A DNA stretch of 62,375 bases, the filler included, from Globobulimina sp. (taxonomy: Eukaryota): the NCBI GenBank assembly GCA_003354225.1. It is 24 parts of 24 records of this genome, joined end to end, with 100 filler letters (N's around TTAATTAATTAA, not from the genome) between each part and the next. Parts side by side here need not be neighbours in the genome. Positions count along the whole stretch, not along the records: positions 33,856 to 36,358 come from PIVH01006295.1; 23 more parts are not named here. The stretch is one strand, 5' to 3'. The translations under genes were made by a program, and so were the position numbers. The notes under the pieces are model-generated. The model did not search any database, was not told the DNA's origin, and saw only the letters and a list, made by a program, of their open reading frames with translations. Shown piece by piece: positions 6,056 to 59,774 of this stretch. The stretch's first letter is position 1, and each line of letters opens with the position of its first letter.

Positions 6056-7716
6056 TCAGAGTATTTTAAATTTGCGTTGCCTTTTCATATTTAAATGTGT
6101 TAGTAAAATATTTGAAGAAGCATCTCCTGAATGTTTCTGAATTTCTAGTTTCCAATTCGCTCTCTTAAATACAGATTGTTGTTGCAATAATTCTTTTTTA
6201 GAAAACACTTGTTTAATCCGTTCAATTTTTATTTTTCTTAATTTTGAATGAAAAATATAATTTAATCTTTTCAAAATAGGAACTAAATGTATCAGATATT
6301 CTTTTGTAATATTTCTTGCCGCATCAAATTGATCCATGCATACAATCAAATCTGTGCAAGAATAAAATATCGAGCCAATCACATCAAACAATACTAAATT
6401 TTTAATTTTTTTATCAATAAAAACATCTGAGAAGCCCGGATATGCCCGGTTTAACCAATGCAAATTAATTTTGATTTTCTTCTTAGTGTGCACTAATTGC
6501 GTAAAACAAGAATTCACATAATCTGGGAAATTATTCGAATATATTTCATCATCAATGCCATCAACAACCGATATGGATACTAACTGATGTTTAATTAGCT
6601 TATTAATAATGGCATAATCCATGGATTTTACTTTATTAATACGAATGTGCCGCTTTCCGTCAATGGCTTGATTAAATATTGACAGTGCCCGGATAAACCT
6701 GCGATAATTCAATGGTGGCCCCGCTTGTTTAATGTCGTGCACACTTCGAATATTTAACTCGTGAAAGCCACCAAAAAATAATCTATAATATGTATGAATA
6801 TATAATATAATATTAATGAATATAATGTAATACCTCTCATCTTCATTGGCGTAGCATGACACCAGACTGCAATTGAAATATCGCAAATTATCCGAATATT
6901 TCTCTAATTCTAATATTATGCCGTGCCGCTTTGAAAATATTGTGGCCACTTCTATTTGCGGTGTGGTAGACGTAGGCCCACAAAACCTGCAAACTAAACA
7001 ATTTAATACCATATGAGACACGCCATGATAAAATATTTTTATTTTCGTCTATTTATTAATATTAATACACACAAACACAATGCACAAAACGGGACAAAAG
7101 TGACATACATTTTTCATTTTCTGCCCAAAGCATTCTATTGATTCCCGCAATAATCGCGACCAGTTTGCATAGCTTGAATTTCTTTGTTTCAATGATGTAT
7201 AGGTCTCCGATGGATATTTCTTTCGAAACGTTTTGCTAAATTGATGGCATAATTCATCATAATCTGTATACAGCAACAATGACATCACATGTTCTACGCT
7301 CATCCTCTCATATTTTTGAATTCCATATCGTTCTTCAAAAAACTTTGTATCACATTTGATTGATTTAAATATATCAGCGGTCAGTAACCGTTGCGCTTTT
7401 TGCAAAGCAACTTTATATTTACATCTATCTAATCGATGAATATCATTATATAACAACTCTTCTTTTAAATTATCATATCGAGCCGGAATGTACCACTGAG
7501 AAAAAGTATAGCCATCGTTCCAATGATCTTTTTCCATTTTCCTCCTATAATAGTCCCAATAATAAAATCTGTGGCCGAAACTATACGTATTCACATGAGG
7601 CCGCAACAGCAACTTCTGCGACAAAGTGCTGCTGGAATAGCTATTCGCGGTGGATGCCATACTCACAATGCTCTCCGTGTCGATATCTGCAAAACTAATA
7701 AGACCTGTCGTGTCAT
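6056..7716 (-). CDS. Lineage-specific protein with ADP-ribosyltransferase-like (YHG / STT / ExE) core (5'-partial)
   Basis: Introns 7049-7108 and 6783-6833 give ...LLLYTDY...FSKTFR...IFYHGVS...FCGPTSTTPQIEVATIF...GIILEL...SCYANEDERLFFGG. Confidence 0.6.
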
Positions 7717-7816: not shown

Positions 7817-10264
7817 ATCAAATTTTAAATCTTTATTCGCATCGCATTTATCCCCAATAGATTCGATACTGTTCATTCCGCCCCATATGGCATTCAACAA
7901 TGCGGTTAATCTCAGTTGTTCTTCAGTGGCAATGCCGGGCGGTCTGCCTCCATCATTCATGAAGGACTCCCAAAAAATAATATCTTCATTGCGCTGGAAA
8001 CCGTCAATATTAATATCATTGAATGGATATGCAACGGTCTCTGATGAACGTGCGTGAATATGCCATGCCATACTGTCTGTTTTTGGAGGACCACCAACCG
8101 CCACATTACGGATATTAATACCTATAAATTAATTAACAATGGCATATATGTACAGTAGTAACCAAATAAAATATACATTACCTGCACCATCCGCACCAAT
8201 GTCCATCCATAAGCTCCTTAAACGAGCTTGTAATTGCATGGGGAACGTAGAGGCAAATTGGTTGTCGTGGCCTGCAGTGTTGCTGCTGCCGGTAAATGCC
8301 ATTGTAAATACACGACCCGTTAATAAACTGTGTGCTAAGCGGGCACCCAACCACTCCATGGTCTGATCGATATATTTAATATTCAAAACTGGCATCGTCA
8401 GCACTTTCTCGTCAATATGTTCAGATAATATCTCAGACTTCTTATGCTTTAATTCTTTGACTATTGAATCCAAATCGAAATTGTGCGTTGGAAGTGCAGT
8501 GTGTATGGGATATCCAGATTGGAATACACCAGTTGATAATAAATATTTCTTTGCAGCAGCAAGACGTGCAAATGCTTTTGGCGTTGACGGGTTGGCGGTA
8601 TATATACGGATTAAATCGGGATAGGTCGCATCTAGAGTACCAACACCATTATAAAAACTGGTCTTATTCGCCCAACCATATCTTATATTGGATGGGATAC
8701 CATTTGGATTATGGAAATTATCCACTGTTTCACTGTTAAGCAACACAATGCAATGCGTGCAGAAGGCGACATGATCACAGTACAGATTTTTTACTTAAGC
8801 TCAACATTTCCACTGAAAAATGCAAAAACGATTAATATAAATAGAAACGTATATATATACCATGGTGCTTTAAGGCAATACTGTGGTCCATCAATGTCAG
8901 TTCCATCCTTGTTGTCACAATTGACAAACGCCGCGATATTATTCAAAAGCGGTGCATCTTTATCCACCTCTTTCATTTCCCGCGTTCTTTGCTGTACACC
9001 AATACCACAGATACCATCATAGAAAGGTCCTCGACCCCAATGCTTTTTTGACTCATCCACAATATGACATGGCGTATATTCCGACCATTCACAGTCATCA
9101 TATCTTATTTCAACATTGACATCAATCCCGGCAAAAGCCACAGAATCATCTGTTTCCAGCTCAATGCATATGCTTTTAAACGTATTCGACTGTAAATGAT
9201 ACGTAACAGTCTGCGGCAATAACCATGCTTTGTCATTTGGCAGTGTCCCTCTTCCGGCATAGACTACGGGCGGATCCATAAAAGATTGGTTGAAATGGCG
9301 GATTAATATGCGATCAAAGCCCCGTTCCAACGCAAATGCATTAAAACTAACATCAATTTGAGCCGTCGGATAGTCAAATAAATAAAAATTGAAACACCAT
9401 TTCCTATATTCATTATTTGCATATTGCGAGTTTGAAAATGGATATTTGATATTAAATATATGTGCATGTTCAAAGATATATGGCATCTCATATCCATCCA
9501 AAACAAGCTTGCTTAAAATCGATGAGTCGCCTAACAAAACAGAAGGTATTTAAAGTAAATATATTTATACGTAGCATACCCAAATCATATTCGTCATCAA
9601 GTTCAAGTGGAATGTCATTGAAATCTAAGTCATATTTATCCGCATCATGTAATATTTTTTTTATTGCATTGATATCGAAATTCGTGGACACATCATTGTT
9701 GTTGATATTATTTGATTGTGCTGTTGGTTCAAATGCAGGTTTGTTATCAATGGCAGGTTGTGCGGCCACCGTTGGTTCGAATGCAGGTTTTTCGGCGTCT
9801 GGGTTAGCATCGATTGGCTGTATAGGCTCAGCATCGATGTCATGATCATCCGAGGCAAATATATCAATGATGCCAGCTCGTTTCTTTTTATTTTTGTTGT
9901 GATTATGAAAGGGGTCTTTTCGTGTTGGCGATGGTGTGTTATTTATTGTGTGTTTATTGTTATTTTGTGAATGTGTATGCTGTGCTTTTGGTGGGTTTGT
10001 GAGTGGTGTGAATTGAGGCGGTTTTATGTTAAATGATGATCCGAGTGAATAGCCGAGAATACTGCCAACAAAAAGAATAATTAATACTAAAAGTAGGTAG
10101 CAACAATTACAGCCACCACTTTCACTGTTATTGGGTTCATATGGCTGTGGTCTATGTCGGGTGTCTACGTTTTCTTCTTCGTCGTCTGAATCATTGTATA
10201 AATCAGCATTTCTCATATCAAAACCAAGTCCGCCGTCTATATCGTAAATGGCTTGGGTTGCCAT
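7817..10264 (-). CDS. Type II membrane protein: TM + Pro/Asn-rich stalk + CUB + TSP1 + SGNH-hydrolase-like domain (3'-partial)
   Basis: TM CYLLLVLIILFVGSILGY; CUB FNAFALERGFDRI...ETDDSVAFAGI; TSP1 CEWSEYTPC...CGIGVQQRTR; SGNH blocks FTGSSNTAGHD and IRNVAVGG. Predicted introns 9531-9579, 8813-8860, 8733-8794 and 8122-8181 keep the frame open. Confidence 0.75.
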
Positions 10265-21177: not shown

Positions 21178-22672
21178 CTATCCCATTGTAACAAAATCGA
21201 ATGGTTTTCTATCCCATAAACGATTGCAACACAAATAGATTGCATTGAAAAAAGTGTCTTTTATCTGTTTATACAATAAAAATACCCCCAAATAATCGCA
21301 CCATTCAACAAAGCAATAACATTTGAAATAGAATGGGAATATTATTTATTGCATTGTTGAATGAAAAGATTATTTGAATTATAATAAAAATAACCTGTTG
21401 CTGTGGTTGAACATAAAATGTTCTGTTTGGAGTACAAATCATGAAACCATTTTGTTTGCCAGTACGTATCCTATCTTTATCCCAAATAATATCAGCATTA
21501 TATAATGAAATATTGCCTTGTGGCACACCAATACCATTTGTTTTCTTATTTATGCGAAAATCGTCTTTGAAATAATATAAAGTGCCATTCAATAACAGCC
21601 ACCATCTCTTCCTCCATGAACGGGCACCGCCACCTTTCTTCGATGCAATTCCTAAAACAAGTCCTTGTTTGACATCGGTTATACGTATTTCCTGAGCAAA
21701 ATGCAAAAATATAAGTTATTTTTATCGCACATTCGCATTTTTATATAAATAAATAACATAAAAACGCAAATGATATCATACGGTGAATGGCTCAGATTGT
21801 TTATTTTCTTTTTGTTCTGAATCATTAATATTGCGATCGTTATTTGACTCATTTAAATATGAATAATATTGTTTAGCTCTTCGCAGCGAATGCGTCCATT
21901 CAATGAGTAGCATGGTATCATTTTGATGGATGGGCCGCAGTCTATAAATGGAATCAGACTCATCGTTATTTTTATATATATTTAACACACAATCTGTGTT
22001 ATCACTGTCTGAATTACATATTGTCGCATCAATACTAGTCACATCAAACTGTTCTGTATCGTATGAATCATGGTTATTTTTAAAATAATATAATGTTCGA
22101 CCTAATAATTGTAAGAATGCTTTTTTTTTGTTATCTTCATGAAAAAATGCACCAATTACAACCGTTTGAGGCATATCGTGAATACCGACATCATCTGTGT
22201 ATAAATTGCGAATTTGCGGCATTTTTGTATATTTTTCCTATATATTTTGTTGAGAGTACGCACCTTTGCGGTCATTTTGGAATAGTTTGTATTCATATTT
22301 TTGTTGTATATAAAATTTTCTGACATCGTCCACATTATCACATTGAGATGGGGTGAGAAAATATTTTGGTTTTCTGTGTTCCAATTTTTTGTTTGCTATT
22401 AAATTTCCACCAATGGCTTTGACAGATTTTAATTCATTGGTGTGCCATTTATCAAATTGGGTGGATTTCACTCTTGAAATATGAACACCAATTTGTCGGT
22501 GAACTCCTGCACATTTAATACAAACAAATATTCCATGATTCCACACACTCCAATTACTATCGGACGAATTCGCTAAACAATCTGCACAAATATTGTTATT
22601 TTGACCACGCGCATCTAGTATTGTGTCGAGTTGTTGTTTCCAATCTGGTGGAGATCTCTTATCCTCCGCCAT
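21178..22672 (-). CDS. ArfGAP with dual PH domains (ADAP/centaurin-alpha-like)
   Basis: ArfGAP zinc finger CADC-x17-CIKCAGVHRQIGVHISRVKS, then two PH domains (WRKRWWLLLNGTLYYFK; GFMICTPNRTFYV). ATG 22672; introns 22195-22263 and 21692-21781. The last exon is unresolved. Confidence 0.85.
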
Positions 22673-24167: not shown

Positions 24168-24509
24168 TGACAGAATGTCTTCAGATTCATTATCTAGTGA
24201 TTGTTTATAATGTGATGTAGCAACATTATTGGTATTGATACTACGTATTAGAAAGAAGGGATATCGATGCTGTTTTTAGTTTTTATTTGTTTTTTATATG
24301 AAAAATACGGAAATTTTGAATAATTTTAAAATCAATACCTTTGTACGTGATCGAGAACATGATTTGAGAATAAAGTCACATTTACCAATACAATTAGCTT
24401 TCGTGAATTTGATACACGACCTAGTTGGTAACATTGAATTAAAAGATTTTTGTAAATTATTAATAAAGAAAAAACTGGAACTTGTTTGAGTTCTAAAAAC
24501 AATGTCACA

Positions 24510-25558
24510 ATGTCTGTCTTGTATATTAGCAGAATTTGTAGTGGCATGATTCTTATTATTTATACCATTCTCATATATAAGTATTTTTTTATAAACAAAA
24601 ATGCATCGATTGCAATTACGGACATCTACGTATTGGAAGAAAATAAAAGTCCTAAATTTTATGATAAATACAATGGCTCATCGCAATTAAACAGGAATAG
24701 GTTGTATATGAATGGAAAACATAAATTAATCTTTTGCTTCATTCAGAAAAATGCAAATACAATGTTTAGGAATTTATGGTTTGCCGTTGAGGGAAAGGAC
24801 CCATTTATTTATCATATTGATACAAGAAAAAATAAATCAAATCCAAAACTGGCATATCATGATCATTTACATATTTATAATCTGGAAAATCAAGAAATAC
24901 TCAATTTAAAATATAATAATTATCTGCAAAAAGTGGTTGATCCGAATTGGAGCAAAATTGTTATCATTCGAGATCCATTGGAAAGAGTTTTGTTTTTTTA
25001 TTGATTTTATGTTAGTTTTAATTGGTTTTGAATAACAGGATGATTATTATTTTTATATAGTTATTGTCTGCTTTTTTAGATCGTTGTTTATGGATTGTTG
25101 CAACATACGGAGTGACAAAGGAATGTTTTGGAGCGATCGGAGATGATTTCAGTTTTAAAGAGTTTGTGGAAAGAATTGTAAACAAAACAAGACACAAAGA
25201 GTACATAACAAATCCCCATTATTGGCCGCAAAGTTGGTGTTGTAAACTGACTGATTTTCTCAATGAATACCAATTTGTAATCAAATATGAATATGATAAG
25301 ATTGGAAGCAATACATTGCACTTTTTACAAGCTGTGAATTTGAGTGAATATTATTATCATTGGGGAGAACATTTCAATGAAACAATGTTTGAGGACAGCG
25401 TCCATGTCACATATAAAGGAGGCAATAATTTGCAATCCAAAATTCAATTTTATAAACAATATTTTGATCGAGATCTAGCAGTTAAATGTTTGAAATTATA
25501 TCAAGACGATTATGAATTGTTTCATCTGCCATATCCAGAATGGATCAATTATTTATAG
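24510..25558 (+). CDS. Golgi-type carbohydrate sulfotransferase (Sulfotransfer_2 / CHST-like)
   Basis: N-terminal TM; 5'-PSB FCFIQKNANTMFR; 3'-PB IIRDPLERLLSAFLDRC after removing intron 24987-25060; NPHYWPQ; LYQDDYELFHLPYP. Confidence 0.9.
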
Positions 25559-26632: not shown

Positions 26633-28548
26633 ATGGACGACCAATCTGGTTTATTGGAACAATTACAAAAGTACCAACACCAAAATAAAAATCTATTAAG
26701 CGAGAATGCAAAGCTTCACGCAAAATCTAAACGGTTAAAAATGGAAAAGAAACGACTTAAACTCAAACTACAAACGCAAATGGTATCACATGCATACATA
26801 CATTTCCATCCTCTACGAATCCGAATTAAAAAATTACCTAAACATAAATAGCAAAACAGCAACAAACACAGCGACACACAACATCAAGACATAAGTATTG
26901 CCACCAAAACATTGGAATTTGTGCATCATCATCACATTGAGATGCAGAGAATGATCGATAACTTAATATCGCATCCTACGATTATCAAATCATCGACACA
27001 TAAAGATTTACAATATATATCCTCCAAATTATCCTACATACAGTCTAAAGTTACCCTATTAACCAATGGCAAAACCTGTATATCCTCGCCGTCAGATCTG
27101 CACTCCCATACACATTCGCATTCCCATTCCCCTGCAAACTATAAATCGTCCACACCTTCCATCAGTGCCTCTGATCACGAAACGGAGTGTAACTTACCAT
27201 CATATACACATACACCAAAAGTTTAGTAATTGCGCATATATTTATATACAATGCGACTGACTGTATACCGGTACATATGACATATGTGTACAACGAAAGA
27301 AACCTATGAAGTATGGCAGTATACGCAACCTGACAGCACGCAGCTCGCCACATAAAACGCGCCAAAGTCTCTCGCAAAGTGCGTGTTCTTTTCTGTGTTT
27401 AAATGTTGCTTAAATTCAAATTTGAAACGTGTTTGCTTTCTACGTAGAAGTGAAGACCGATTATGACGGATACAATGATTTAGATTCACAGTATCATCGA
27501 AGGAACCAATCTCACCCGGATTCGCATACATCGTTACAACACCAACTGCGACAGTTGGATTTGGATAAATATATCAATAAAAACAAAAATAAAAATAGGA
27601 GAAGCACAGAAACTGCGCTGATACACAAAACGCATTCAAGTGCAGTTTCAGAGAATGATAACAATTTATTATTACCAGTACGCAAACAGAGATCGACCAT
27701 CATATCCTCGTCGACTTCCGACTGCATTATGGATAATATTGGGCCCGGTATGTTGTTTTGGACCTATTTCTAAAAAAAAACACTTAATTCCATCATTGAA
27801 TAGATTTGCATATACCGTCATTACCGTCATCGCCCAGTGTATATTATGAAAATACGCGAGAACGGCCTCAAATCAGTCAAATGGCAGCAAAGCGAAGGAC
27901 CAACAAAGCATACAAATCCCGTCGGAGTTTTACGCAGAAAAAAAGTAATACTAAATCAGATTCAGTGACAATATCAGAATCGCCGATATCGACCATAATT
28001 TGCGGCGCATCGAGCGATACCAACAGCACTTTTAGTCCCTCACAGAAACTAATCAGCAAATACAAGGAGAGGACGCAGGAACAAAGCGAGGCTTCTTTCA
28101 GTATCAGTAATGTCAATTTTGTTTATGAATTCAACTCAGAGATAGATGACGCCAATGACGAGAATGACCATGATATGGATAGCAAGCATACGCAAAGCAA
28201 GACGTATCCGCAACATATGCACTTAAACAACAATGAATTATCACATCAAAATGTCAATATCAAAGGATCTGCAAACTCATTCCCATTGACACCAAACACC
28301 GCCCACAGCCTCAACCCATTGACACCGAGTCATAATGCGGTGCATTTACGCGTTGATTTGTCGCAGCTGCAAAATGCGGCCAAGCCCAAAGCAAATATGA
28401 AAAAAAGAAGGCACGCGAAAACATTCACAACTGAGTTGCCGGAAAATGCAGAAAAAATGGCTGGCAAATGGAAGCTGGACAGATCGTATGATTTCCCTTC
28501 GCCCATTTTGATAAAAGCAAACAAAGCGAAAACAATACATTACAAACA
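26633..28548 (+). CDS. Multi-exon hypothetical coiled-coil / Ser-rich protein (3'-partial)
   Basis: Consecutive same-strand ORF segments separated by GT-AG intron-like stretches (e.g. 26783-26851). Exon structure approximate. Confidence 0.6.
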
Positions 28549-30527: not shown

Positions 30528-31152
30528 TTAAAACGAGTGCATCTCATGAAAATGATACAGATTTAAACTTTCAATTACGACATGGCTCTTCTTTTTTGTC
30601 GCAATCAATGTCCGTTCTTTCCCTTTATTGGCGAACAGGTGAATTATTTTTATATTTTCAAAAAACGGACCCATGATATTACTGCAATATTTAATCCGTT
30701 CATTCCTAAGTTGTGCATTTCTGTCGGGCATTTTTAACGTAAATATAAGATATCCATTATCTTTTAAATATGCACATACATTGTTCATAATAAATACAGC
30801 ATCTTTTGGTGCCATATTTGCGTCACATACAATAATATCAAATTGATTATCTTTCCTTGTAAACGGTGCTAAATCACCATCAATTATGCATTTCTCAATT
30901 GTTTTTTGATAATATTTTACAGATCGCATTGTAGTTTCGTCCAGTTTTAGTTTTCCTGGATCCACTGAAACAATTTGCGCTGCTCCTCTACCAATCAAAT
31001 ATTTGCTCCATCCGCCAGGACTTGCGCCAATGTCCAATGCCACGAAATTGCGATTTAATAATTTAAAAAACGAATTATATCTCAAAAAAATCTCACGTAA
31101 TTTATAATAAGCTCTTGATATTGAGGCATCGCCAAATTTCTTACATTGCAAT
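30528..31152 (-). CDS. FtsJ/RlmM-like 2'-O-ribose RNA methyltransferase (5'-partial)
   Basis: SRAYYKLRE; ALDIGASPGGWS; VSVDPG; DIIVCDAN; IFTLK; HLFAN...ERT give a K-D-K-E tetrad. Confidence 0.85.
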
Positions 31153-33755: not shown

Positions 33756-33929
33756 NNNNNNNNNNNNNNNNNNNNNNNNNNNNNNNNNNNNNNNNNNNNT
33801 TAATTAATTAANNNNNNNNNNNNNNNNNNNNNNNNNNNNNNNNNNNNNNNNNNNNAATATATATATTTTTTTTCTTAACTCAATTTAGTTTTTATTTTTA
33901 AAATTTATTATGTATGATATATTAATAAG

Positions 33930-35042
33930 ATGGATATAAACTACGTTAATGTGAAATCACCAAATGCAAATACATTACTTGATACATATATATTATTAAA
34001 TAAATGCGCATATAATGATCTTAATAAACTTAAAACCCGCATATCATCAGTTGATTCATATAAGTGGAGGCTAATTAGAAATATCGTGACAAAATATGAG
34101 TTTATTGGTAATAATAAATATCATAATATTAAGTGCTTAAAAGGCAAAAGAGTTATCAGCAGAGCATACTATAAATTATTAGAGATATTAGTTGATAACG
34201 AAAAAATATTTAAGCTTAAAGAAAATCGTAGAAATAAAATGAATATTGTTTGCTTGGCCGAAGCACCAGGTGGGTTTATACAATGTATATCGGATTATAG
34301 GAAAAACAAGCATGATGTTATAACTGGCATTTCATTAAAAGACGATAAAGATAATAAAATTGATTGGAGTTTGTTTAATAACAATAATATAGATATTGTG
34401 TATGGCGATAAAACAAAAAACCACAATGGTAATTTATGCAATCCAGATATAATTGAATATTTTTGCTCAAAGTTTGACACAAATAAAGCTGACTTTGTTA
34501 CGGCTGATGGTGGGTTATTATTAAGTAATTCGCAAGAAAACTATCGTGGGCAATATCATAGTAATTTATTTTTATGTGAAATATATATTGCATTAAAAAT
34601 ATTAAATCATAATGGCAATTTCGTAATAAAAATATATGATATAAGCAATAAGTTTATTTTAGATATGCTATCGATATTAGAAAAACAATTTAATACTATA
34701 AAAATTGTAAAACCACATACATCTCGCGAAATGAATAATGAGAAATATATTGTATGCAGTGGTTATAAAAGCAATAATGATAATTTTGATTATTTATTCG
34801 GTATTATTAAAAAATTATGGGATAATAAAGATTTGATTATATGTAAATTATTTAAAAACACAACAAGCAGAAAATATAATGCAACATCTCGTAATTCGAT
34901 ATTGTCGCAAAGCAGCGCAATAAAGTACGGTTTATCACACAGGAACTTAACGACCGCTAAATTATATGATATTGTTAATAACGAACACCGATACAAAACG
35001 AAAATGGCATATGAGTGGCTAAGCCATTATAAGATATATTAA
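33930..35042 (+). CDS. NCLDV-type FtsJ-like mRNA cap 2'-O-methyltransferase (CMTR1-like)
   Basis: KYEFI...ISRAYYKLLEI; CLAEAPGGFIQC; FVTADGG; GNFVIKIYD; KPHTSREMNNEKYIVC. Stand-alone, intron-less, very AT-rich. Confidence 0.85.
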   Translation: MDINYVNVKSPNANTLLDTYILLNKCAYNDLNKLKTRISSVDSYKWRLIRNIVTKYEFIGNNKYHNIKCLKGKRVISRAYYKLLEILVDNEKIFKLKENRRNKMNIVCLAEAPGGFIQCISDYRKNKHDVITGISLKDDKDNKIDWSLFNNNNIDIVYGDKTKNHNGNLCNPDIIEYFCSKFDTNKADFVTADGGLLLSNSQENYRGQYHSNLFLCEIYIALKILNHNGNFVIKIYDISNKFILDMLSILEKQFNTIKIVKPHTSREMNNEKYIVCSGYKSNNDNFDYLFGIIKKLWDNKDLIICKLFKNTTSRKYNATSRNSILSQSSAIKYGLSHRNLTTAKLYDIVNNEHRYKTKMAYEWLSHYKIY

Positions 35043-35056
35043 ATGACGTATAACAT

Positions 35057-35085
35057 TTATAAATAACTCAATGATTTATTTATAA
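35057..35085 (+). terminator. AT-rich hairpin 3' of the viral methyltransferase gene
   Basis: TTATAAATAA (35057-35066) / TTATTTATAA (35076-35085): 10-bp perfect stem 14 nt after the stop. Confidence 0.45.
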
Positions 35086-35155
35086 TTATAAATAACTATT
35101 TTATTGGCATAAATTATTTTATATTAAAATAAAAAAGCTATAATAGTATATAACA

Positions 35156-35254
35156 ATGATAAAACAAATATTTAGTGTGTGTAAAAGCATCTTATCCGCG
35201 TGCGCAAACATGATATCCGGTTTAATAGAGGCATTATTTTTAGTATGCGAGTAA
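35156..35254 (+). CDS. Putative 32-aa viral microprotein
   Basis: MIKQIFSVCKSILSACANMISGLIEALFLVCE*. It is more GC-rich than its flanks and shares the 5' motif AGTATATAACA with the next gene. Confidence 0.4.
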   Translation: MIKQIFSVCKSILSACANMISGLIEALFLVCE

Positions 35255-35302
35255 AATAATTTAAATAAACAAAGATATAAATAATATATAACAGTATATA
35301 AC

Positions 35303-36163
35303 ATGAGTAATAAACATAATCAAAGACGAAATAAACGAACATACAAAAACACCATTAAAGTGATAAAATTGGAAGATGCGATAATTGCTGATCAGAAAAC
35401 ATCTGAGCCATTAATTGTATGCTTAAAAATTGATATTGATAAAATTGAAACAAATAATAAAAACTTTGAAAATGAGTTTTTAATCTATAACCCAAAAGTT
35501 GTAGTTGGAGACCCGATTGGGTTTAATATCGAGAATGATGATATTCATGCTATGATGCCAGAAAATATTGATATACATACTGAAGACAAAACTAACCAAA
35601 TGCAATATGTTGTTAGGGATAATGGAAATGATAAAATGATAACAATTAGAGACACTATGGTTGAGTTTAGAAATATTAAAGAGAAGAAGTTTTTTAAAAC
35701 CGATATTTGTTGTTGGCATTGCTGTCACAAGTTTGATAATATGCCAGTTGGCATACCAGAATCATACAAAGACGGATTATTTAGCGTAAAGGGTGTTTTT
35801 TGCGGGTTTAACTGCGCATTAACATATAACTACAATTCTAAATGTTATGAAAATAAAATACAAGAACGCGAGGGTCTATTATATATAATGTAAAAAAAAA
35901 TAAATAAAATTAAGGGTTCAGACTTTGAAATTAAATATGCCCCAGAAAAAGAAACATTAAAAATGTTTGGTGGCAATTTATCAATTTCTTCATTTAGAAA
36001 AAACACCAATACATATTCAATTGCATACCCACCACTATTACCGCTCACACCAAAGCATATCGAAGAACAAAAATACATATGCACGCCTATTCATAAACCA
36101 ACGGTTGATAGGGAAACAATTAATAAGACGCGAATGAGCAAGATGTTTTCATTTAAGAATTAA
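35303..36163 (+). pseudogene. VLTF2: NCLDV late transcription factor VLTF2-like zinc-finger protein with an in-frame TAA at 35891-35893
   Basis: CCWHCCHKFDNMPVGIP...GVFCGFNCALTY; after the TAA the same frame continues KKINKI...IKYAPEKETLKMFGGNLSISSFR, the conserved AP...L..FGG.LSI..FR tail. Confidence 0.75.
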
Positions 36164-36179
36164 AAAAATGCTTTAAATA

Positions 36180-36208
36180 TTTATTATATAATTAAACTAT
36201 ATAATAAA
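36180..36208 (+). terminator. AT-rich hairpin 3' of the VLTF2-like gene
   Basis: TTTATTATATA (36180-36190) / TATATAATAAA (36198-36208): 11-bp perfect stem with a 7-nt loop. Confidence 0.5.
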
Positions 36209-36214
36209 ACAGAT

Positions 36215-36358
36215 ATGGATATTAATAGAAGTGATAGTGATAGTGATAGTGAGTTTGGCCCAATTTCTAATGCCAGTGCATCTGATAACGGTTCCGTACA
36301 AAGCGAAAATTTAGCATACCAGAATAATACGCAAAACCATTATGATAATAAATCAGTT
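36215..36358 (+). CDS. 5' end of a further putative viral ORF
   Basis: ATG-initiated Ser/Asp-rich ORF open to the contig edge. Confidence 0.55.
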
Positions 36359-36725: not shown

Positions 36726-38961
36726 ATGTCGTCAATAAATATTTTATTAATCAGCTTATTTTTATCGTTATCTACAATCACCACATCACAGAATTTAACC
36801 CAATCGATTGCATTTCTAGCGGATGAACTAAAATCATTATTTTGTAACGATTTGTCTGTTGGTGATTATAAATGCGGTGATGGCAGCTATGGAATCCAAG
36901 ACTTTGTAAATTCATTTAGTGACAACTTCGAAAGTGAGGTTCTTGATATTACGGAAATCACGCAAGCCATTATTGACAATTTGAACAATGAGTTGAATGT
37001 AAGAGCCACCTTCCTGACCACCCTCGCGTACGAACTGGAAGAATCGTGCCTGGCCTATGGTTATGGTGATTTATCCAGCGAAGCAATTCCAGACTTTCAA
37101 TATTTAAAATTTTCTGGCAATGCGGATCGTGCTGCAAATTTGCCAAACGACGTTGCGTACAGTTCAGTTTATGGCAACTCGGTGTCTCTCGGATATACCA
37201 CCTATAAAATACCAAATAACGTCGATTATCAATCTGATAACATCCAAAAAGATGCACAAGTTTGTCAATTTCAAATAACATATTTTTTGTTTTCACCGGA
37301 ATAATTTATATAAACCACATTGTGACAATAATTATTTTGATGAAAACAAAAAACAAACGTTAATTTAAAATTAGATTTCATATCTATTAGAAAGTACTAT
37401 GCTCGATTTACATGACAAACATTGTGTTGATAGCAATGGGAATGAGGAATATTGTGCCATGTACTTCGGGACAGTGAATGGTGTTTTTAGGCAATATCCA
37501 GGCACAGAGAGTACTAAACAAAACAACATTTACTCGAGTTATGACCCACGGTTCCGTCCATGGTATGTTTCAGCTGCCTCCGGGATGAAAGATGTTGTGA
37601 TATTAATCGACAGATCCGGTTCAATGCTGGAACACGAACGAATGGCACTCGCTCAACAGGCGGTTATTTCTGTGTTAACCACTTTGGGTCAATCATCATT
37701 TGTATCTGTTGTCGCATTCAATGATGACGCCACTCTCTCTTGCTTTGGTATTTGCATATTTGTATTTGTAATATTAAATATTACACAAACAACAAAAAGG
37801 AGAGGAACTGGTTGCAGCAACATCAAAAAATGTGGCTGAATTAGTTTCCTTTGTTGAAGGGTTGAGTGCTAAGAGAGGAACAAACTTCGAGGCTGCATTT
37901 AATGCGGCATTTGATATTTTAGAAAACGGAGCGAAAAGCTGTCAAACCTCTATTCTATTTTTAACCGATGGTCAGGCCGATGATGTGTCGGAATTGATTG
38001 AACGTAGAAACACCGATGATATAAATGCTGTAATTTTTTCATACACATTGGGCTCTGACGCAGACACAACAGTCCCTCGCAAAGTGGCTACTTTAACCAA
38101 CGGTATCTACAAACACATTGACGACGATGATTCAAATTTAATTACGGCAATGAGTTCTTATTATTTATACTATGCGTATGGAGCACGTGGTGATGCGTCT
38201 GATAATATTATCGTAACCTCACCATATTTGGACTTCGATACCGGCATTGCAATGATTACGATGGCCATGGCGGTATACGTGAACGTGACCTATTTTGTCG
38301 GCGTGGTTGGCATAGATATCCCGTTATCATTTTTATCCGACGCCATTGGGGACATTACAATTGGTCGGAAATCCTATTCCTTTGTTGTTAACCAAGAGTC
38401 GGAAGCCATTTTACATCCATTAATTGCCGATCCGTTAACTACATTATTCACAACAGGCGATACATACAATGCGGTGTATATTGATGATTTAGAACCGGCA
38501 GAGTTCAATACGACACTAGTAACCATGCGTAAAAGTGGTATGGTCAAAATCACCGCCAATGTGAAACAAGCTGCGGGCAATGTAGCATATAATGGGTATA
38601 TCTATGAAACAGTAGAACTGTTATACATTTATGCCGGTGTTGGGCCCTCTTCCTTATCCATTGGAATAGTGATATACACAGAAAGTGGCATTGCTGCACC
38701 ATATATTAAAGGGTTTGGCTTCTTTGGATCGCTGATTGCCAATGATGAGTGTACCAATGACACATTGCCATTCCAATGCATTGCGCCATTCAATTTACTG
38801 GATGATATCGAGAGAGTCGCCGAGTGTGACAGTTCATGGATGGAGCAAGCCGGCATTGTCTCAGATGGTAACGGCTTGCATGTATCCTATAAATATCCAG
38901 CATGGTTTTTGCACGCCGGTGGTTGGAGCGATTCGATCAATTTTTTAAATATTGAGGCAAC
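36726..38961 (+). CDS. Secreted VWA + Cache domain protein (alpha2delta / CACHD1-like), 3'-partial
   Basis: Signal peptide; MYFGTVNGVFRQYP; YDPRFRPWYVSAASGMKDVVILIDRSGSM (MIDAS); ILFLTDG; TSPYLD; GVVGIDI. Introns 37260-37374 and 37748-37799. Confidence 0.9.
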
Positions 38962-39239: not shown

Positions 39240-40063
39240 TTATGGATCTTGTGCAATATATTGATTCTTCTTTGGTACATACTCCCTATATCGCTGTGGG
39301 AATGCAAACGTTGATAATGGTTTAACATCTCCTCGATCCAACCATGGTTTATTTTGCTTCACATATTTATACAATTGCTGTGGAGTCATAATCTCTATAT
39401 CTTCCTCTTCAAACCAATCCGGATGTGACTCTAAGAAATCATTCCTTCTTTTTATCCAATCTTTATATATTCCAATGTCTTTCCACCAAGCCCTCGAATA
39501 CCAATTTGGTCTCCGTAATTCCATTGGTGTCTGAGCCACCAAATTCATATTGCCCGCTCTCCGAATGCATCCAATAAATGGCAACTCGACGCGGCGGCAC
39601 TTATCAAATTTCCTCTCCTCTCTCTCCAAACATTTGCCATACGCAAATAACGCCTCTTCACAGCCTGCCTCTTTGATTTGTAATTGTCTGTTTACGATTT
39701 GTTTATATTTATATATTGTTAATGCGGTCGGTCGCAAATTCGCAATCTTAACTGTTTCCAATGAGCGCGTCTTAATGATTCGCCAACTTCTAAACAGGAA
39801 GAATAACTGTTGACACCTTTTTGTCTCCTACATTTATACCAATCATCGGTGGCATTTTCAAGGTCAACCGTCCATGCTTTGGAGCGTGCCATATCAAGAT
39901 CCATTTCTGGGAATTCAGCTAAATCATCTCTCAAATGATCGACATAATCCCAACCCCAGTATTTATCAATGAGACCACCTTTAGGCGTGAATCCTTGATA
40001 TATATAACCGCCAAAACCTTGTGTACGTTGGGCGGTTGTATCACGGTGTGAGTCATGTGCCAT
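39240..40063 (-). CDS. Mitochondrial complex I subunit NDUFA8-like (CX9C) protein
   Basis: Intron 39688-39752 joins two ORFs to give YKCRRQKG...SCLEVG...IKEAGCEEALFAYGKCLE...FDKCRRVELPFIGCI. Confidence 0.65.
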
Positions 40064-46867: not shown

Positions 46868-49265
46868 TAATCAAATTGGACGTATATATTCAGTTAATTT
46901 TAAAGAAATTGAACGTTGGTGTTTACGTAAATTATTATTACGAGTTTCGGGTGCTACATCTTTTGCACATCTTCGAACAGTGCCAAAAACAGAAGATATA
47001 AATTTTATTATTCCCCAAGAGGAACAAAAAGAAGGCAAAGAAGAGGATTTAGATGATTTTATTGTCGATGATGAGGAACCGATGGATTTGGATGACGAAT
47101 ATATTCCTGAAGAACCACACAACAATGATAATAATGGCAGTAATAACGCGCGAAGTTCAATGGAAGAAGATGAAGAAAAACAACATATGGCATCAAATAT
47201 AGACCAGACACTAGAAGATATTGTTGATTTTGATGATGAAATGGATGCAGAAGAAGCGCAGGATGAAGGATATTTTGATTTTGATGCGGCAAACGAACAA
47301 TATTATTTAGCAGGAGATATGAAAGAGGAAGAATCCACAGTCTACGCGACATTTAAAGAGGCATGCCAAGCGCGAGGCTTTTTAGATGACGATAGAGAGT
47401 GGGATTTAGCTATAACTGAAGCGAATGCAGCTGGTGCAAGTGCAAACCAATTACGGGAATTTTTTTGTTTAATATTGGTAAATAATACGCCCACCAATTC
47501 GAAGAACATATGGGATAAACATAAAAATAGATTTATGGATGACAGTGAATTTTATAGAGACGGCGATATGGATAAAGCTGAGAATTTAGCCTTATTACAA
47601 ATACAAAGTATATTAGAAACACATAGGTGTACTATGGCTCAATTTAATTTACCTCAACCCGTTCCGGACGAATTATTTGCCAATAACATACCAAAGGATT
47701 TATTAGCAGAAATAAGTTATGACATAAAGGAATGTAAAAAAAAATTGAAATTAGGGTGTCAAAAAATAAGAAGAAATAGAAAACAAAATGAGATATATCA
47801 GGAAATTCGAGCTTTAATTGATTCAGGAAACCCATCAGGTCAATATTTCTTTGTTGATGGACCAGGTGGTACGGGTAAAACACTATTATTTAATACCTTA
47901 CTCAATTATGTACGAGCCAAAGAACCAGCAGCTAATGGTGATAGACATATTGCTGTTGCATGTGCAGCCTCTGGTATCGCTGCATTATTATTATCAGGTG
48001 GTAGAACAGCACATAATAGATATGGTTTAGGTGTGGACATTGGTCCTAGAACAACCTGTAAATATGATAAATTTAGAAACTGTGCTAGAACACAAATATT
48101 AAGACGTGCAGAGATTATTATTTGGGATGAGGCGACAATGTCTTCAAAATATATGTTAAAATCCGTGGATTTATGTTTACGTGATATTATGGATAATGAA
48201 TTACCGTTTGGTGGCAAATTAATTGTATTTGGCGGTGATTTTCGTCAAACATTGGGTGTAGTAGAAGGTGGTAATAGAGCACAAGAAATTGCTATGTGTA
48301 TTAAAAGTTCCCCTTTTTGGAATGATATTAATATCAGAAAACTTACCGATAATATGAGAGTAAAAAGTAATCAAAACGAAGAGAATCGAGAAAGATTAGA
48401 AACGTGGAGTAATTATTTATTATCTGTTGGTGATGGGAAAGAAAGAGTGACTGAAGAAATACAAAAACAATTTGTAGCTGGTATAAATAACACGATTAGA
48501 TTACCAAGAAATATTATATCAAAATCAAAAACAGTTGAAGATTTAATTGATGAAATATATCCAAATTTAGAAGGTGGTATACACAATGATGATATTGAAA
48601 CGACTGCAATATTAACTCCATTAAATAAAGATGTAGACACATTAAATGAACTTGCGATGGCACGGAGTAGAGGCGAACAGTTTGCACCGGTTTATAGTTC
48701 AGATTCTGTGGTTGATGAAGGGGATGGAACATCAGAACGTTATTCAGAGGAATATTTGAACGGATTAAATGTGTCTGGATTGCCTGTACATAAATTAAGG
48801 TTAAAAAAAGGTGTACCGATTATGTTATTACGGAATTTATCACCAATAAATGGATGTTGTAATGGAACACGGTTAAAAGTTCAACATGTGGGTAAATACG
48901 TGATAAGAGGAATGATTCTTACTGGACCTAGGAAAGGATATATATTTTTTATACCACGGATTACGTTAATAACCAAAGAAGGAAAATTTGCAGGATTTCA
49001 ACTCAAACGGAGACAATTTCCAGTCCGACTTGCATATGCTATGACAATTAATAAATCACAAGGACAAACACTTGAAAATGTTGGATTATATTTACCAAAC
49101 GCATGTTTTGGTCATGGACAACTTTATGTTGCCTTATCAAGGGTTGGTGATCCAAATATGATTAAAGTTGTAGTATTACCAACAAAACAACAAGGGACAT
49201 TGAATGATGATACTTACACCAGAAATGTGGTGTATACAGAGGTTCTTGATAATTATTTAGAGTGA
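46868..49265 (+). mobile_element. Helitron Rep/helicase ORF, C-terminal Pif1 helicase part (5'-partial)
   Basis: IGRIY...LRKLLL...ATSFAHLRTV; TFKEACQARGFLDDDREW; DGPGGTGKT; ASGIAALLLSGGRTAH; IIWDE; PFGGK...GDFRQ; LRNL...NGTRL; RRQFPVRLAYAMTINKSQGQT; GHGQLYVALSRV; TRNVVYTEVL. No stops or frameshifts. Confidence 0.92.
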
Positions 49266-52071: not shown

Positions 52072-53427
52072 TGAAAAGCGCTGAAATTTTGTGTTGGTAG
52101 AGTTTAATTTTACATCTACAGTTGCTCGCAAATTTTTAGCTATAGCACCATGTAACCATTTATTTGTTTGCAATTCCTTTGCAGAGGGTCTCTGCGAAAC
52201 ATTTTGACAAAAACACTGACATAAAAATTGTTTAAATAAATTTGATATATCTGGCGGAAGAGCTGGATGCATATCGGACATAATTCGAAATAATGCTGGA
52301 AGTGGTAATAAAGTATGATATGGTGGATAGCCAACAAATAATTCGATAGCTGTGGCGCCAACAGCCCATATATCGGATGACATTGTTTTATTTGACATTT
52401 CTATCATTTCTGGAGCCATCCAATAAACAGAGCTCTGTGTCTCTATATCATTATCATTAAAATCAATTTTTAAACCAAAATCCGATAATTTAACACATTC
52501 ACAGTCATCAATCAGCACAGTTTCCTTTGTTGTGGTATATAACAATCAATAGAAGTGACTAATTATTGTCATATAAATGTACTTAACAGCTCTCAGATTG
52601 CCGTGTATTATTCCTCGTTGATGTAAAAAATCCAAACCACATAAAATTTGTGCAATCAATGATGCAACCTTTCTCTCATTAAAGTTGCCAATCAGTTTCA
52701 AAACGGATGCCAATGAACCTCCATTCACAGATTCGAACACAATTCCAAATTCCGATTCGTTTTGAATCATTTCGATGTAGTTTACAATATTTTGATGGGA
52801 AACTGATGCTAATAAAGAGATGTTCGACTCAAGGTTGTGTTGTTCAGATTTAGTTATTATTTCTTTCGAAATTAATTTGATTTCATACACTTCCAATGTT
52901 TGTGTGTTGAGAGCTTTCATGGTTTTATAACGCTGGGAAGCAGAATAACGTGATAATTGTTTCATGATTTTATAATGTGAGAATCGTTGTGTATTTACAG
53001 ACCGTACTTTGCAGTCTCTCCTCGTTTGGAATCCTGGGGCATATTGTAAATCTTTCCAATTATTTCTATCGGCTCTACGGACTCTAGGTTGATCCCCACC
53101 ACATTCACACCATAATGAGAATTCATACTTTATGTCAAATATTTCTCTAATTTTGGATATCATAGAATCCAGCGAATCATCAATAGGACAGTATAATATA
53201 CATTTTATACTCCAGAAATGTAATATTTTCATTTTTAATGGTTTTGCATAATAAAGCAATATAACGTCTGTCACAGTGGGAGGTATAGATAAATGAAATG
53301 ATTGTAAAACAATTGAAATGCCTCTGCAGAATCCTGCAATTAAAATAATATGTTGTGATTTAATATGTAATTTGCTTACGATTGTTTCTGCTTTGCATTC
53401 AATATCAACAAAGTCTTTACAATCCAT
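52072..53427 (-). CDS. Cdc7(S. pombe)/Cdc15/MAP3K-epsilon-like STE-group pseudokinase (3'-partial)
   Basis: Intron 52525-52587 gives HGNLRAET...VKLSDFG...YWMAPEMIEM...SDIWAVGAT..EL..G.PPY...PALFRI. No Gly-rich loop. Confidence 0.8.
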
Positions 53428-53469
53428 GATTAGCTAAAGTTTTTTTTCGCCCTTTAATGTTTTCAGCAC

Positions 53470-58361: not shown

Positions 58362-59774
58362 ATGCTGTTTGGTTGTTTATTTTGGAGTACATTATTTGTG
58401 TCACATTATGCCCAAACACCTCCTCAATTAATTGACAGTGTGGTCAAAACAATATTTGAAAAATATGCTTCAGATTGTCGTATGTAATTTATGATTATGG
58501 ATATGGTTAAGCGCATTTATTTTATTTTTTTTATCGTGCACTATAATTAAATTTGAACTATAATTAGGTGGAGCAATTATATTCGATTCAATGTATAAAG
58601 CTACGGCCCAATTTGGAGCAAATGAAAGAAATTATAATACCACACAGAAATTGGATTATGATGCAAATGTATTACCAATATTAAATACTTATTTATATGA
58701 TGATACCTCCACTCCCGGTTATAAGATAGTACACAATCAAACCATCCCATGGTCCTCAGATCCAAAGATTGGAGACAGTGTTGGATTATTTCCAATCACT
58801 TATTTAGATTCTTTATTATATGAATATAGACAAAGTAATGATGCTCAAGTGTTCAATTTTAGCGGCAGAAATAAAACACAATGGCAATTAATATTTACCA
58901 CAATGGATTACTATATATTACAATTCCCGCGGCATTTACCGGATAAATATGGCACTGTCTCCAGATCGTCAGCTGGTTCCTGGGAGAATGAAGAAAATAA
59001 AAATAATAGTTTTCTGTGGGGAGATGACAATCATATGGGCTTAACTTTGCCTGCTCGCTTAGCTCAAGCATTGACATTTTGTGACAAAAATATTGCTAAT
59101 AATTGCAATGGAGTGAATGTTGAAAATAATGTCAGTGCATATGTTCGATTTGTGTATGAACAGAACATGGGATTTCAACAACATTTGCCGTATCCAAATA
59201 GCAGATATAATGCTTTATATGCACATGGTTATAATTTCGCAAGCAATGACCATTCGTGTTGTCCGTGGGGGAGAGTCAATGCGTGGGTTATGATCGCACA
59301 TATTGAAGCTTTAAAAATGTATAAATATTTAAATGACAGTTCCTATGATGGCGAGAGGAGAGATATTTTAGAATTATATGAAAATCAAGCGAATTAAGTG
59401 GCCAGTTTACAAAATACAGAAAATGGGCGGTGGCATCAAATTATTAATGATAGCTCTACTTTCTTAGAAACAAGTGGTTCCACCGGTTTTCTATATGGTT
59501 TCATCTATGGAAGAATTAATAATTTATTACCAACCAATGTTTATAGTTTAGCTGATTGGGATAATAAGATTGAGTTAGGCTGGAAAGGTTTATTACAAAT
59601 TGTTGATTATAATACAGGGATTATATCTGGTGGCTGCGAAGGAACTGGCATTCAAAATGATGTCCAAGCATATAATTCAAGGTCAACTGCGTATTGCAGT
59701 TGTGGCAATCCTGGCGATCCTGCATTTGTTTTAAATGCAATCACCGGATATCAACAATATCTTAATTTTAAGAA
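58362..59774 (+). pseudogene. Secreted glycoside hydrolase family 105/88 with an in-frame TAA at 59395-59397 (3'-partial)
   Basis: Signal peptide; intron 58480-58567; LWGDDNHMG; LYAHG; WGRVNAW; LQNTENGRWHQI; ETSGS; CEGTG. The frame continues directly after the TAA. Confidence 0.75.

Follow-up and report, generated by a model that had tools for sequence, protein, structure and literature searches.

Fragments of giant viruses are common in protist assemblies, where they are known to give rise to mis-annotated 'host' genes, and to our knowledge most giant viruses recovered from metagenomes have no known host. Two described proteins bear on the present case: the poxvirus factor VLTF2, which activates late genes, and the cap methyltransferase CMTR1, which carries G-patch, guanylyltransferase-like and WW domains. 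The part of PMC11253617 available to us counts VLTF2 (NCVOG1164) among the core genes and the signature genes of the Nucleocytoviricota, with homologs reported in that group only. With regard to hosts, the available part of PMC13196603 presents the first cultured giant viruses of Rhizaria (ChlorV), reported in 2026, and mentions endogenous nucleocytovirus genes reported in the rhizarian Bigelowiella natans. Here we compare with these systems a stretch of 62,375 bases from a Globobulimina sp. assembly (GCA_003354225.1), hereafter the window, in which one contig (contig 14) had been proposed to be viral by an earlier reading made from the sequence alone (the sequence-only reading).

A putative giant-virus contig

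Contig 14 almost certainly derives from the Nucleocytoviricota, to judge from its two recognizable genes and their relatives. We read it, with moderate confidence, as a genome fragment of an uncultured nucleocytovirus that was co-sequenced with the protist as non-integrated viral DNA; the lineage is probably an AT-rich, Imitervirales-like one that is known from metagenomes only. The viral DNA may have come from virions, from an infected cell or from ingested material. What is new is the lineage, which by sequence appears to share about 50% identity with its closest relatives in public data, while the type of fragment is a familiar one in protist assemblies. The reading is carried by the following features.

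33930..35042, plus strand: predicted stand-alone CMTR1-like mRNA cap 2'-O-methyltransferase, 370 aa, intact (Pfam, fold, tetrad)
35303..36163, plus strand: putative VLTF2-like zinc-finger transcription factor, 286 codons, with one in-frame stop inside (homologs, profile, BFVD)
35891..35893, plus strand: in-frame TAA at a Tyr position (Tyr in 11/12 homologs, His in 1/12; alignment)

The window is made up of 24 contigs of 2,501-2,506 bases each, joined by N/TTAATTAATTAA/N spacers and sorted by falling length. Since the contigs are merely length-sorted, adjacency in the window carries no information on physical linkage, and the position of contig 14 'among' protist contigs means the same length class and the same assembly, and no more. 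Its boundaries are exact (33856-36358, between N/TTAATTAATTAA spacers). Contig 14 is a compositional outlier among the 24: its GC content (0.264) is the lowest, and 29.7% of its 50-nt windows have a GC content of at most 0.2, as against 14.6% or less in any other contig. The sequence-only reading had described its intergenic DNA as almost pure AT, in agreement with the GC contents of the four spacers (9.5%, 13.3%, 10.4% and 9.8%, versus 26-34% in the open reading frames, ORFs).

The same reading had called the contig intronless, and this was borne out. The methyltransferase aligns end to end with its homologs (query cover 96-100% in the best rows) and the VLTF2-like protein aligns without insertion, whereas short introns split neighboring genes, such as a sulfotransferase (24456-25001 and 25061-25555) and a kinase (52072-52545 and 52549-53433). 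It had further pointed out that all genes lie on one strand. All plausible ORFs of contig 14 are indeed on the plus strand, but with three or four genes this is no more than chance would give, and the relatives use both strands.

An intact CMTR1-like protein, a predicted cap methyltransferase

The product of gene 1 matched the FtsJ family of Pfam (1e-27). By sequence, the closest solved structure was human CMTR1 (4n48; E 5.6e-21, residues 104-296 only), followed by EP424R of African swine fever virus (ASFV; 1.3e-7), and the rRNA/tRNA FtsJ enzymes matched at 1e-6 or weaker. An AlphaFold model built with 33 homologs reached a pLDDT of 92.2 and superposed on CMTR1 over the whole length (TMq 0.78, about 395 columns, identity about 22%), as compared to a TMq of 0.38-0.47 for FtsJ, Spb1 and Trm7. 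The residues K82, D193, K234 and E271, which form the K-D-K-E tetrad, are invariant across 34 aligned sequences, and the S-adenosylmethionine (SAM)-binding loop is present. Both in sequence and in its modeled fold, the protein resembles the cap enzyme and not the rRNA/tRNA FtsJ enzymes. The CMTR1 fold match and the intact tetrad agree with the sequence-only reading, which had named a stand-alone cap 2'-O-methyltransferase, and gene 1 is predicted by homology to encode a stand-alone cap-1 (ribose 2'-O) methyltransferase. The 370-aa enzyme would use SAM and the K82-D193-K234-E271 tetrad to convert cap-0 to cap-1 on viral mRNAs, by methylation of the 2'-O of the ribose in the first transcribed nucleotide.

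All seven loci with methyltransferase relatives in IMG/VR (39-45% identity over residues 1-363, GC 18-23%) lie on giant-virus contigs, which reach 145 kb. In two of them (L007 and L011; 40 ORFs scanned), the relative is located within about 5 kb of a major capsid gene of nucleocytoplasmic large DNA viruses (NCLDV; PF04451/PF16903), with genes for Erv1/Alr, the ribonucleotide reductase (RNR) small subunit, DUF5760 and a cap guanine-N2 methyltransferase within a few kb. In an IQ-TREE phylogeny of 34 methyltransferases, a set that contains no cellular reference, the window protein pairs with P0048 (99/94), and the pair falls within a 24-row clade (100/99) containing all five rows with giant-virus context. 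The cluster labels of ten homologs were only generic (for example, RlmE/FtsJ, KEGG K14590). Among the best-scoring structural neighbors in BFVD, a baculovirus methyltransferase 1 ranked at the top, and the others include Bodo saltans virus, pithovirus-like metagenome-assembled genomes (MAGs) and klosneuviruses, at identities of at most 28%.

These relatives bear on the alternative that the genes of contig 14 are not viral at all but ordinary cellular ones, belonging to the protist or to some other eukaryote present in the sample. CMTR1-type enzymes are cellular, the top solved-structure match of the methyltransferase is the human protein, and the window contains a second FtsJ-like gene (30531-31151, contig 12). 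That gene, however, has only a 53-residue motif region in common with the methyltransferase. Moreover, every relative of known context is viral, VLTF2 homologs are reported in Nucleocytoviricota only (in the accessible part of PMC11253617), and contig 14 is intronless, unlike its intron-bearing neighbors. A cellular origin is thus extremely improbable.

A VLTF2-like factor and its viral relatives

The frame of gene 2 was searched as a read-through of 286 codons, with X at the stop. Among 320 candidates scored, 26 homologs were found at E <=1e-3, the best being 305-336 aa long and 42-55% identical; no informative name is attached to any of the 26. A profile search reached 5,916 cluster representatives at E <=1e-3, including 511 at E <=1e-30. 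The alignment revealed an invariant zinc-finger core (C136-C137-W138-H139-C140 ... F166-C167 ... C171) and a conserved C-terminal module that includes A213, P214, L219, F222-G224 and F231, among others. A basic N-terminal region precedes these, with AT-hooks in 7 of the 13 members.

A Foldseek search of BFVD with the AlphaFold model gave nine matches at E <=1e-3. Among the best 23 rows, all 17 named ones belong to nucleocytoviruses, and five are annotated as VLTF2 or A1L. These include a 'Putative VLTF2-like transcription factor' of Aureococcus anophagefferens virus (AaV), a 'Putative VLTF2 transcription factor' of Feldmannia virus and three pithovirus-like 'A1L/VLTF-2' entries; further rows are a transcription factor of Cafeteria roenbergensis virus (CroV) and ASFV B175L. 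As the TM scores are only 0.21-0.29, the matches support the VLTF2 family without proving membership. In the ESM Atlas, the homolog P0008 adjoins clusters in which viruses make up 98-100%, Nucleocytoviricota being the most frequent. No match was obtained in a PDB profile search with the alignment, or in a tblastn search of the phage collection with the protein. Taken together, the sequence features indicate that gene 2 encodes a VLTF2-like Cys/His zinc-finger factor, which by homology would act as a transcription factor of the VLTF2 family.

In IMG/VR, all six loci with relatives of gene 2 are on viral contigs, four of which are named GVMAG. The genes beside these relatives (57 ORFs scanned) encode DUF5759, DUF5767, a Pox_A22 resolvase, PCNA, DVNP and an SNF2 helicase, as well as a triple-domain mRNA capping enzyme and the minor capsid protein P11. 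A metagenome scan with the alignment yielded 15 loci, none above 50% identity, and four of them repeat IMG/VR loci. The relatives of the two genes never occur within 10 kb of each other in the fetched loci; two hits, P0022 and P0054, have a longest contig of identical length (63,213 bp). For both proteins, the closest relatives (40-55% identity) come from metagenomes. With relatives of both proteins on giant-virus contigs (6/6 and 7/7 loci), the giant-virus origin proposed from the sequence alone was substantiated, as was the marker status that it had assigned to VLTF2, which the available part of PMC11253617 lists as a signature gene under NCVOG1164.

The size of these contigs also bears on the possibility that contig 14 stems not from a giant virus but from a small element related to nucleocytoviruses, of a mriyavirus-like or polinton-like kind. 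Viruses of 35-45 kb also have VLTF2, as stated in the accessible parts of PMC11253617 and bioRxiv 10.64898/2026.06.19.733378, and contig 14 carries no size-diagnostic gene. The homolog-bearing contigs, on the other hand, reach 32-145 kb and encode a capping enzyme, PCNA, RNR, an SNF2 helicase and the NCLDV major capsid protein (MCP), which makes a small element very unlikely.

Observations that weigh against the reading

Several observations weigh against the reading of contig 14 as a nucleocytovirus fragment with a VLTF2 gene. The VLTF2-like protein does not match the Pfam poxvirus VLTF2 model, and 8 of the 13 members show weak zf-FCS matches instead (best E 1.2e-4); we found no literature linking VLTF-2 with FCS. 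The window protein lacks the AT-hook-like N-terminus typical of most homologs, its basic N-terminal region being shorter than in 10 of the 12 homologs. Its AlphaFold model is poor (pLDDT 44, with 66-74 in the core residues 150-200), and the low-scoring BFVD matches rest largely on the zinc-finger core. None of MCP, PolB, A32 and VLTF3 is present on the 2.5-kb contig, and the AAAATTGA promoter motif is absent from its upstream regions (0 in 4, the sample being four genes). The tetranucleotide comparison proposed by the sequence-only reading was divided: the corrected usage of contig 14 correlates with that of the other contigs at a mean r of 0.43, which is below the 0.55 among those contigs but above the 0.28 with viral loci, so that contig 14 is not cleanly separated. 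Finally, a virus that replicates would not be expected to have a core gene interrupted in frame by a stop; such an interruption fits an endogenous or defective copy.

The in-frame stop

The sequence-only reading had identified the VLTF2-like factor, an identity that homologs, profile and BFVD support, but it had overlooked the TAA at 35891-35893. The frame ends there after residue 196, just beyond the zinc finger. The alignment is gapless on both sides of the stop, and ten invariant residues are kept downstream. An intron at this site was rejected, as both sides align to the homologs without a gap. A reassigned stop codon was likewise rejected, as both genes also have TAA as their terminal stop, at the place at which their homologs terminate. 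With neither an intron nor a codon reassignment, the TAA would be either an error of assembly at low coverage or a nonsense mutation that arose very recently in a copy that is defective or endogenised.

On other contigs, too, long ORFs of one frame are separated by a single in-frame stop; this is seen at seven sites, and TAA, TAG and TGA are all represented (7049-7051, 8129-8131, 22238-22240, 26849-26851, 39532-39534, 52546-52548 and 59395-59397). At the site that was checked, the kinase stop of contig 21, the sequence fits an intron that is short (about 60-70 nt) and in frame, and not a variant genetic code.

Free or integrated viral DNA

The stop is one argument for a giant endogenous viral element that entered the nuclear genome of the protist recently, with the nonsense codon as the first sign of decay. 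A TAA at a conserved Tyr of a core gene, the basic N-terminal region shorter than in most homologs, the assembly and retention of contig 14 with nuclear contigs, its tetranucleotide usage near that of the other contigs (r 0.43) and the Bigelowiella natans precedent (in the available part of PMC13196603) all fit such an element. Decay would nevertheless amount to a single lesion in 2.5 kb: the methyltransferase is intact with all its catalytic residues, and the ten invariant residues of the VLTF2-like protein persist past the stop. The spacers are still at about 10% GC, with a start-proximal motif repeated, and the GC content, the lowest of the 24 contigs, shows no drift towards the host composition. 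Within contig 14 there is no host junction, intron or transposon, and the stretch is found in only one of three runs of the sample. We consider an integrated element rather unlikely, and the DNA of contig 14 to be, on balance, non-integrated rather than endogenous.

As for the sequencing runs, run X1 has 0.33 of the sampled words of the stretch, two further runs of the same sample have next to none, and no RNA run is listed as containing the stretch. Contig 14 is represented in run X1 by four exact Logan contigs (167-302 nt, depth 3-4.2); the stop at 35891-35893 lies outside them, and they contain no junction. A 246-nt contig of run X3 (record 7) matches 35944-35985, in the conserved C-terminal part of the VLTF2-like gene, with four mismatches and then diverges, while its reading still gives a VLTF2-like motif. 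The sample thus seems to contain a second related VLTF2-like gene, which fits a mixed virus population or several inserted copies.

Whether the virus belongs to the sequenced protist is a separate matter. For Foraminifera as giant-virus hosts, the available part of PMC8546719 offers co-occurrence predictions only so far, and among the papers listed by our literature search on foraminifera and giant viruses, none, judged by title, deals with a foraminiferal giant virus. It appears improbable that contig 14 comes from a giant virus infecting, or recently integrated into, the sequenced protist. If it did, the contig would give this host group (the sequence-only reading had named a foraminifer) its first nucleocytovirus on genomic evidence, of a lineage that shares only about 50% identity with any sequence in public metagenomes, and the fragment in run X3 would point to an element family or a persistent virus population. 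The finding would matter more if the virus were tied to the protist; in either case, flagging contig 14 prevents two viral genes from being counted as genes of the host.

Spacers, motifs and hairpins

The remaining features of contig 14 are located mainly in and around the AT-rich spacers.

33856..33929, plus strand: AT-rich 5' flank, putative promoter region of the methyltransferase gene (GC 9.5%)
35057..35085, plus strand: A/U-rich inverted repeat, possible 3'-end hairpin (weak), 15 nt past the methyltransferase stop (z -1.48)
35145..35154, plus strand: AGTATATAAC motif, 1 nt 5' of the small-ORF ATG (2 copies in the window, 0.22 expected)
35156..35254, plus strand: hydrophobic 32-aa ORF, GC 0.33 within a spacer of 10-13% GC (ORF scan, GC)
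35293..35302, plus strand: second AGTATATAAC motif, abutting the ATG of the VLTF2-like gene (motif count)
36180..36208, plus strand: 11-bp A/U hairpin 17 nt past the VLTF2-like stop, possible transcript 3'-end signal (z -3.61)
36215..36358, plus strand: start of a putative third gene, truncated at the end of the contig; 48 codons, acidic, rich in Ser/Asp/Asn (ORF scan, GC)

Each gene is preceded by a spacer of 50-110 nt with about 10% GC, which may serve as its promoter. Both window copies of AGTATATAAC abut start codons (35156 and 35303), and a number as high as two arises in 3 of 100 shuffles; the motif is a candidate start-proximal promoter or initiator element, on evidence that the AT-richness of the DNA leaves suggestive only. 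In several relatives, no 7-mer is more common upstream of ORFs than TATATAA (L007, for instance, has it at 15 of 26 ORFs), a frequency that is only suggestive given the AT-richness of the DNA. An A/U hairpin would follow at least one stop codon: none of 200 shuffles folds as well as the hairpin 3' of the VLTF2-like gene, as compared to 16 of 200 for that of the methyltransferase gene. In three related loci, z falls below -2 at 5 of 46 gene ends.

The 32-aa ORF is possibly a real small gene; no homolog of it was present in the fetched virus loci. The third gene may correspond to the DUF5767 gene found after VLTF2 in relatives; a tblastn search of the fetched loci with the fragment gave no hit.

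Which group of giant viruses

The sequence-only reading had assigned the contig to a Mimiviridae-like virus. Features of Mimiviridae membership include the AAAATTGA early-promoter motif upstream of genes and hairpin-forming motifs at gene 3' ends (PMC6163669). Contig 14 has three copies of AAAATTGA, every one of them in coding sequence. The BFVD neighbors of the VLTF2-like protein include Tetraselmis virus, Terrestrivirus, AaV and CroV, besides the pithovirus-like entries, and those of the two proteins together are a mixture of Imitervirales, pithovirus-like viruses and one baculovirus, at no more than 28% identity. The Imitervirales among them agree with the assignment, but the pithovirus-like and baculovirus neighbors, the low identity and the absence of AAAATTGA upstream do not; Mimiviridae is only loosely supported, and an Imitervirales-like lineage is our best guess, not a result.

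Other contigs of the window

The other contigs carry eukaryotic domains, such as tubulin, RIC1, ArfGAP/PH, UBC, RBR ligase, kinases and PIF1 (47 ORFs). No domain of MCP, PolB, A32 or VLTF3 was detected in these 47 large ORFs of the other 23 contigs, and 132 ORFs compared with the fetched virus loci gave no match beyond a motif. Rfam and tRNA scans of the window returned nothing, with no rRNA.

Four contigs deserve mention in their own right. Contig 19 (46869-49262) is nearly filled by a 798-aa intronless PIF1-type helicase ORF and, of all the contigs, correlates least with the rest in tetranucleotide usage (0.37); it may be a mobile element, Helitron-like or otherwise, or a viral one. Contig 15 (37375-38959) encodes a VWA domain followed by Cache/PDC sensor domains, an order reminiscent of calcium-channel alpha2delta-type proteins. 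In contig 22 (54675-57173), an 833-aa open frame combines PX, a weak GGDEF match (4.2e-8) and ankyrin repeats, a mix unusual for a eukaryote. In contig 12 (29168-31151), a divergent tubulin (best match 48% identity, EukProt) adjoins the FtsJ-like methyltransferase gene, whose product shares only the above motif region with that of contig 14 and had no solved-structure match at E <=1e-3.

Comparison with known systems

The VLTF2-like protein of contig 14 shares the Cys/His core (CCWHC ... FC..NC) with VLTF2/A1L (NCVOG1164), and its relatives are viral only. It differs from VLTF2/A1L in its failure to match the Pfam poxvirus model, in its low identity to the named proteins (15-26%), in the in-frame stop and in lacking an AT-hook-like N-terminus. 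The methyltransferase shares with human CMTR1 (4n48) the whole-length fold, the K-D-K-E tetrad and the SAM-binding loop, but it is a stand-alone protein of 370 aa without the G-patch, guanylyltransferase-like and WW domains of the human enzyme. It also matches two viral enzymes, ASFV EP424R and the methyltransferase 1 of a baculovirus (nucleopolyhedrovirus, NPV).

ChlorV (Aliimimivirinae) and the viral genes of Bigelowiella natans provide a precedent for VLTF2-bearing nucleocytoviruses in Rhizaria, as far as the accessible part of PMC13196603 describes them. The giant-virus contigs in IMG/VR differ from contig 14 in that the proteins are only 39-55% identical, genes are found on both strands and the two genes never adjoin each other in the fetched loci. 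They are nonetheless compact, with a GC content of 18-23% and TATATAA-type 7-mers common upstream of their ORFs, and it is among them (for example, GVMAG-S-1063917-30, GVMAG-M-3300017986-31 and UViG 3300009103_001445) that the nearest relatives of both genes are held.

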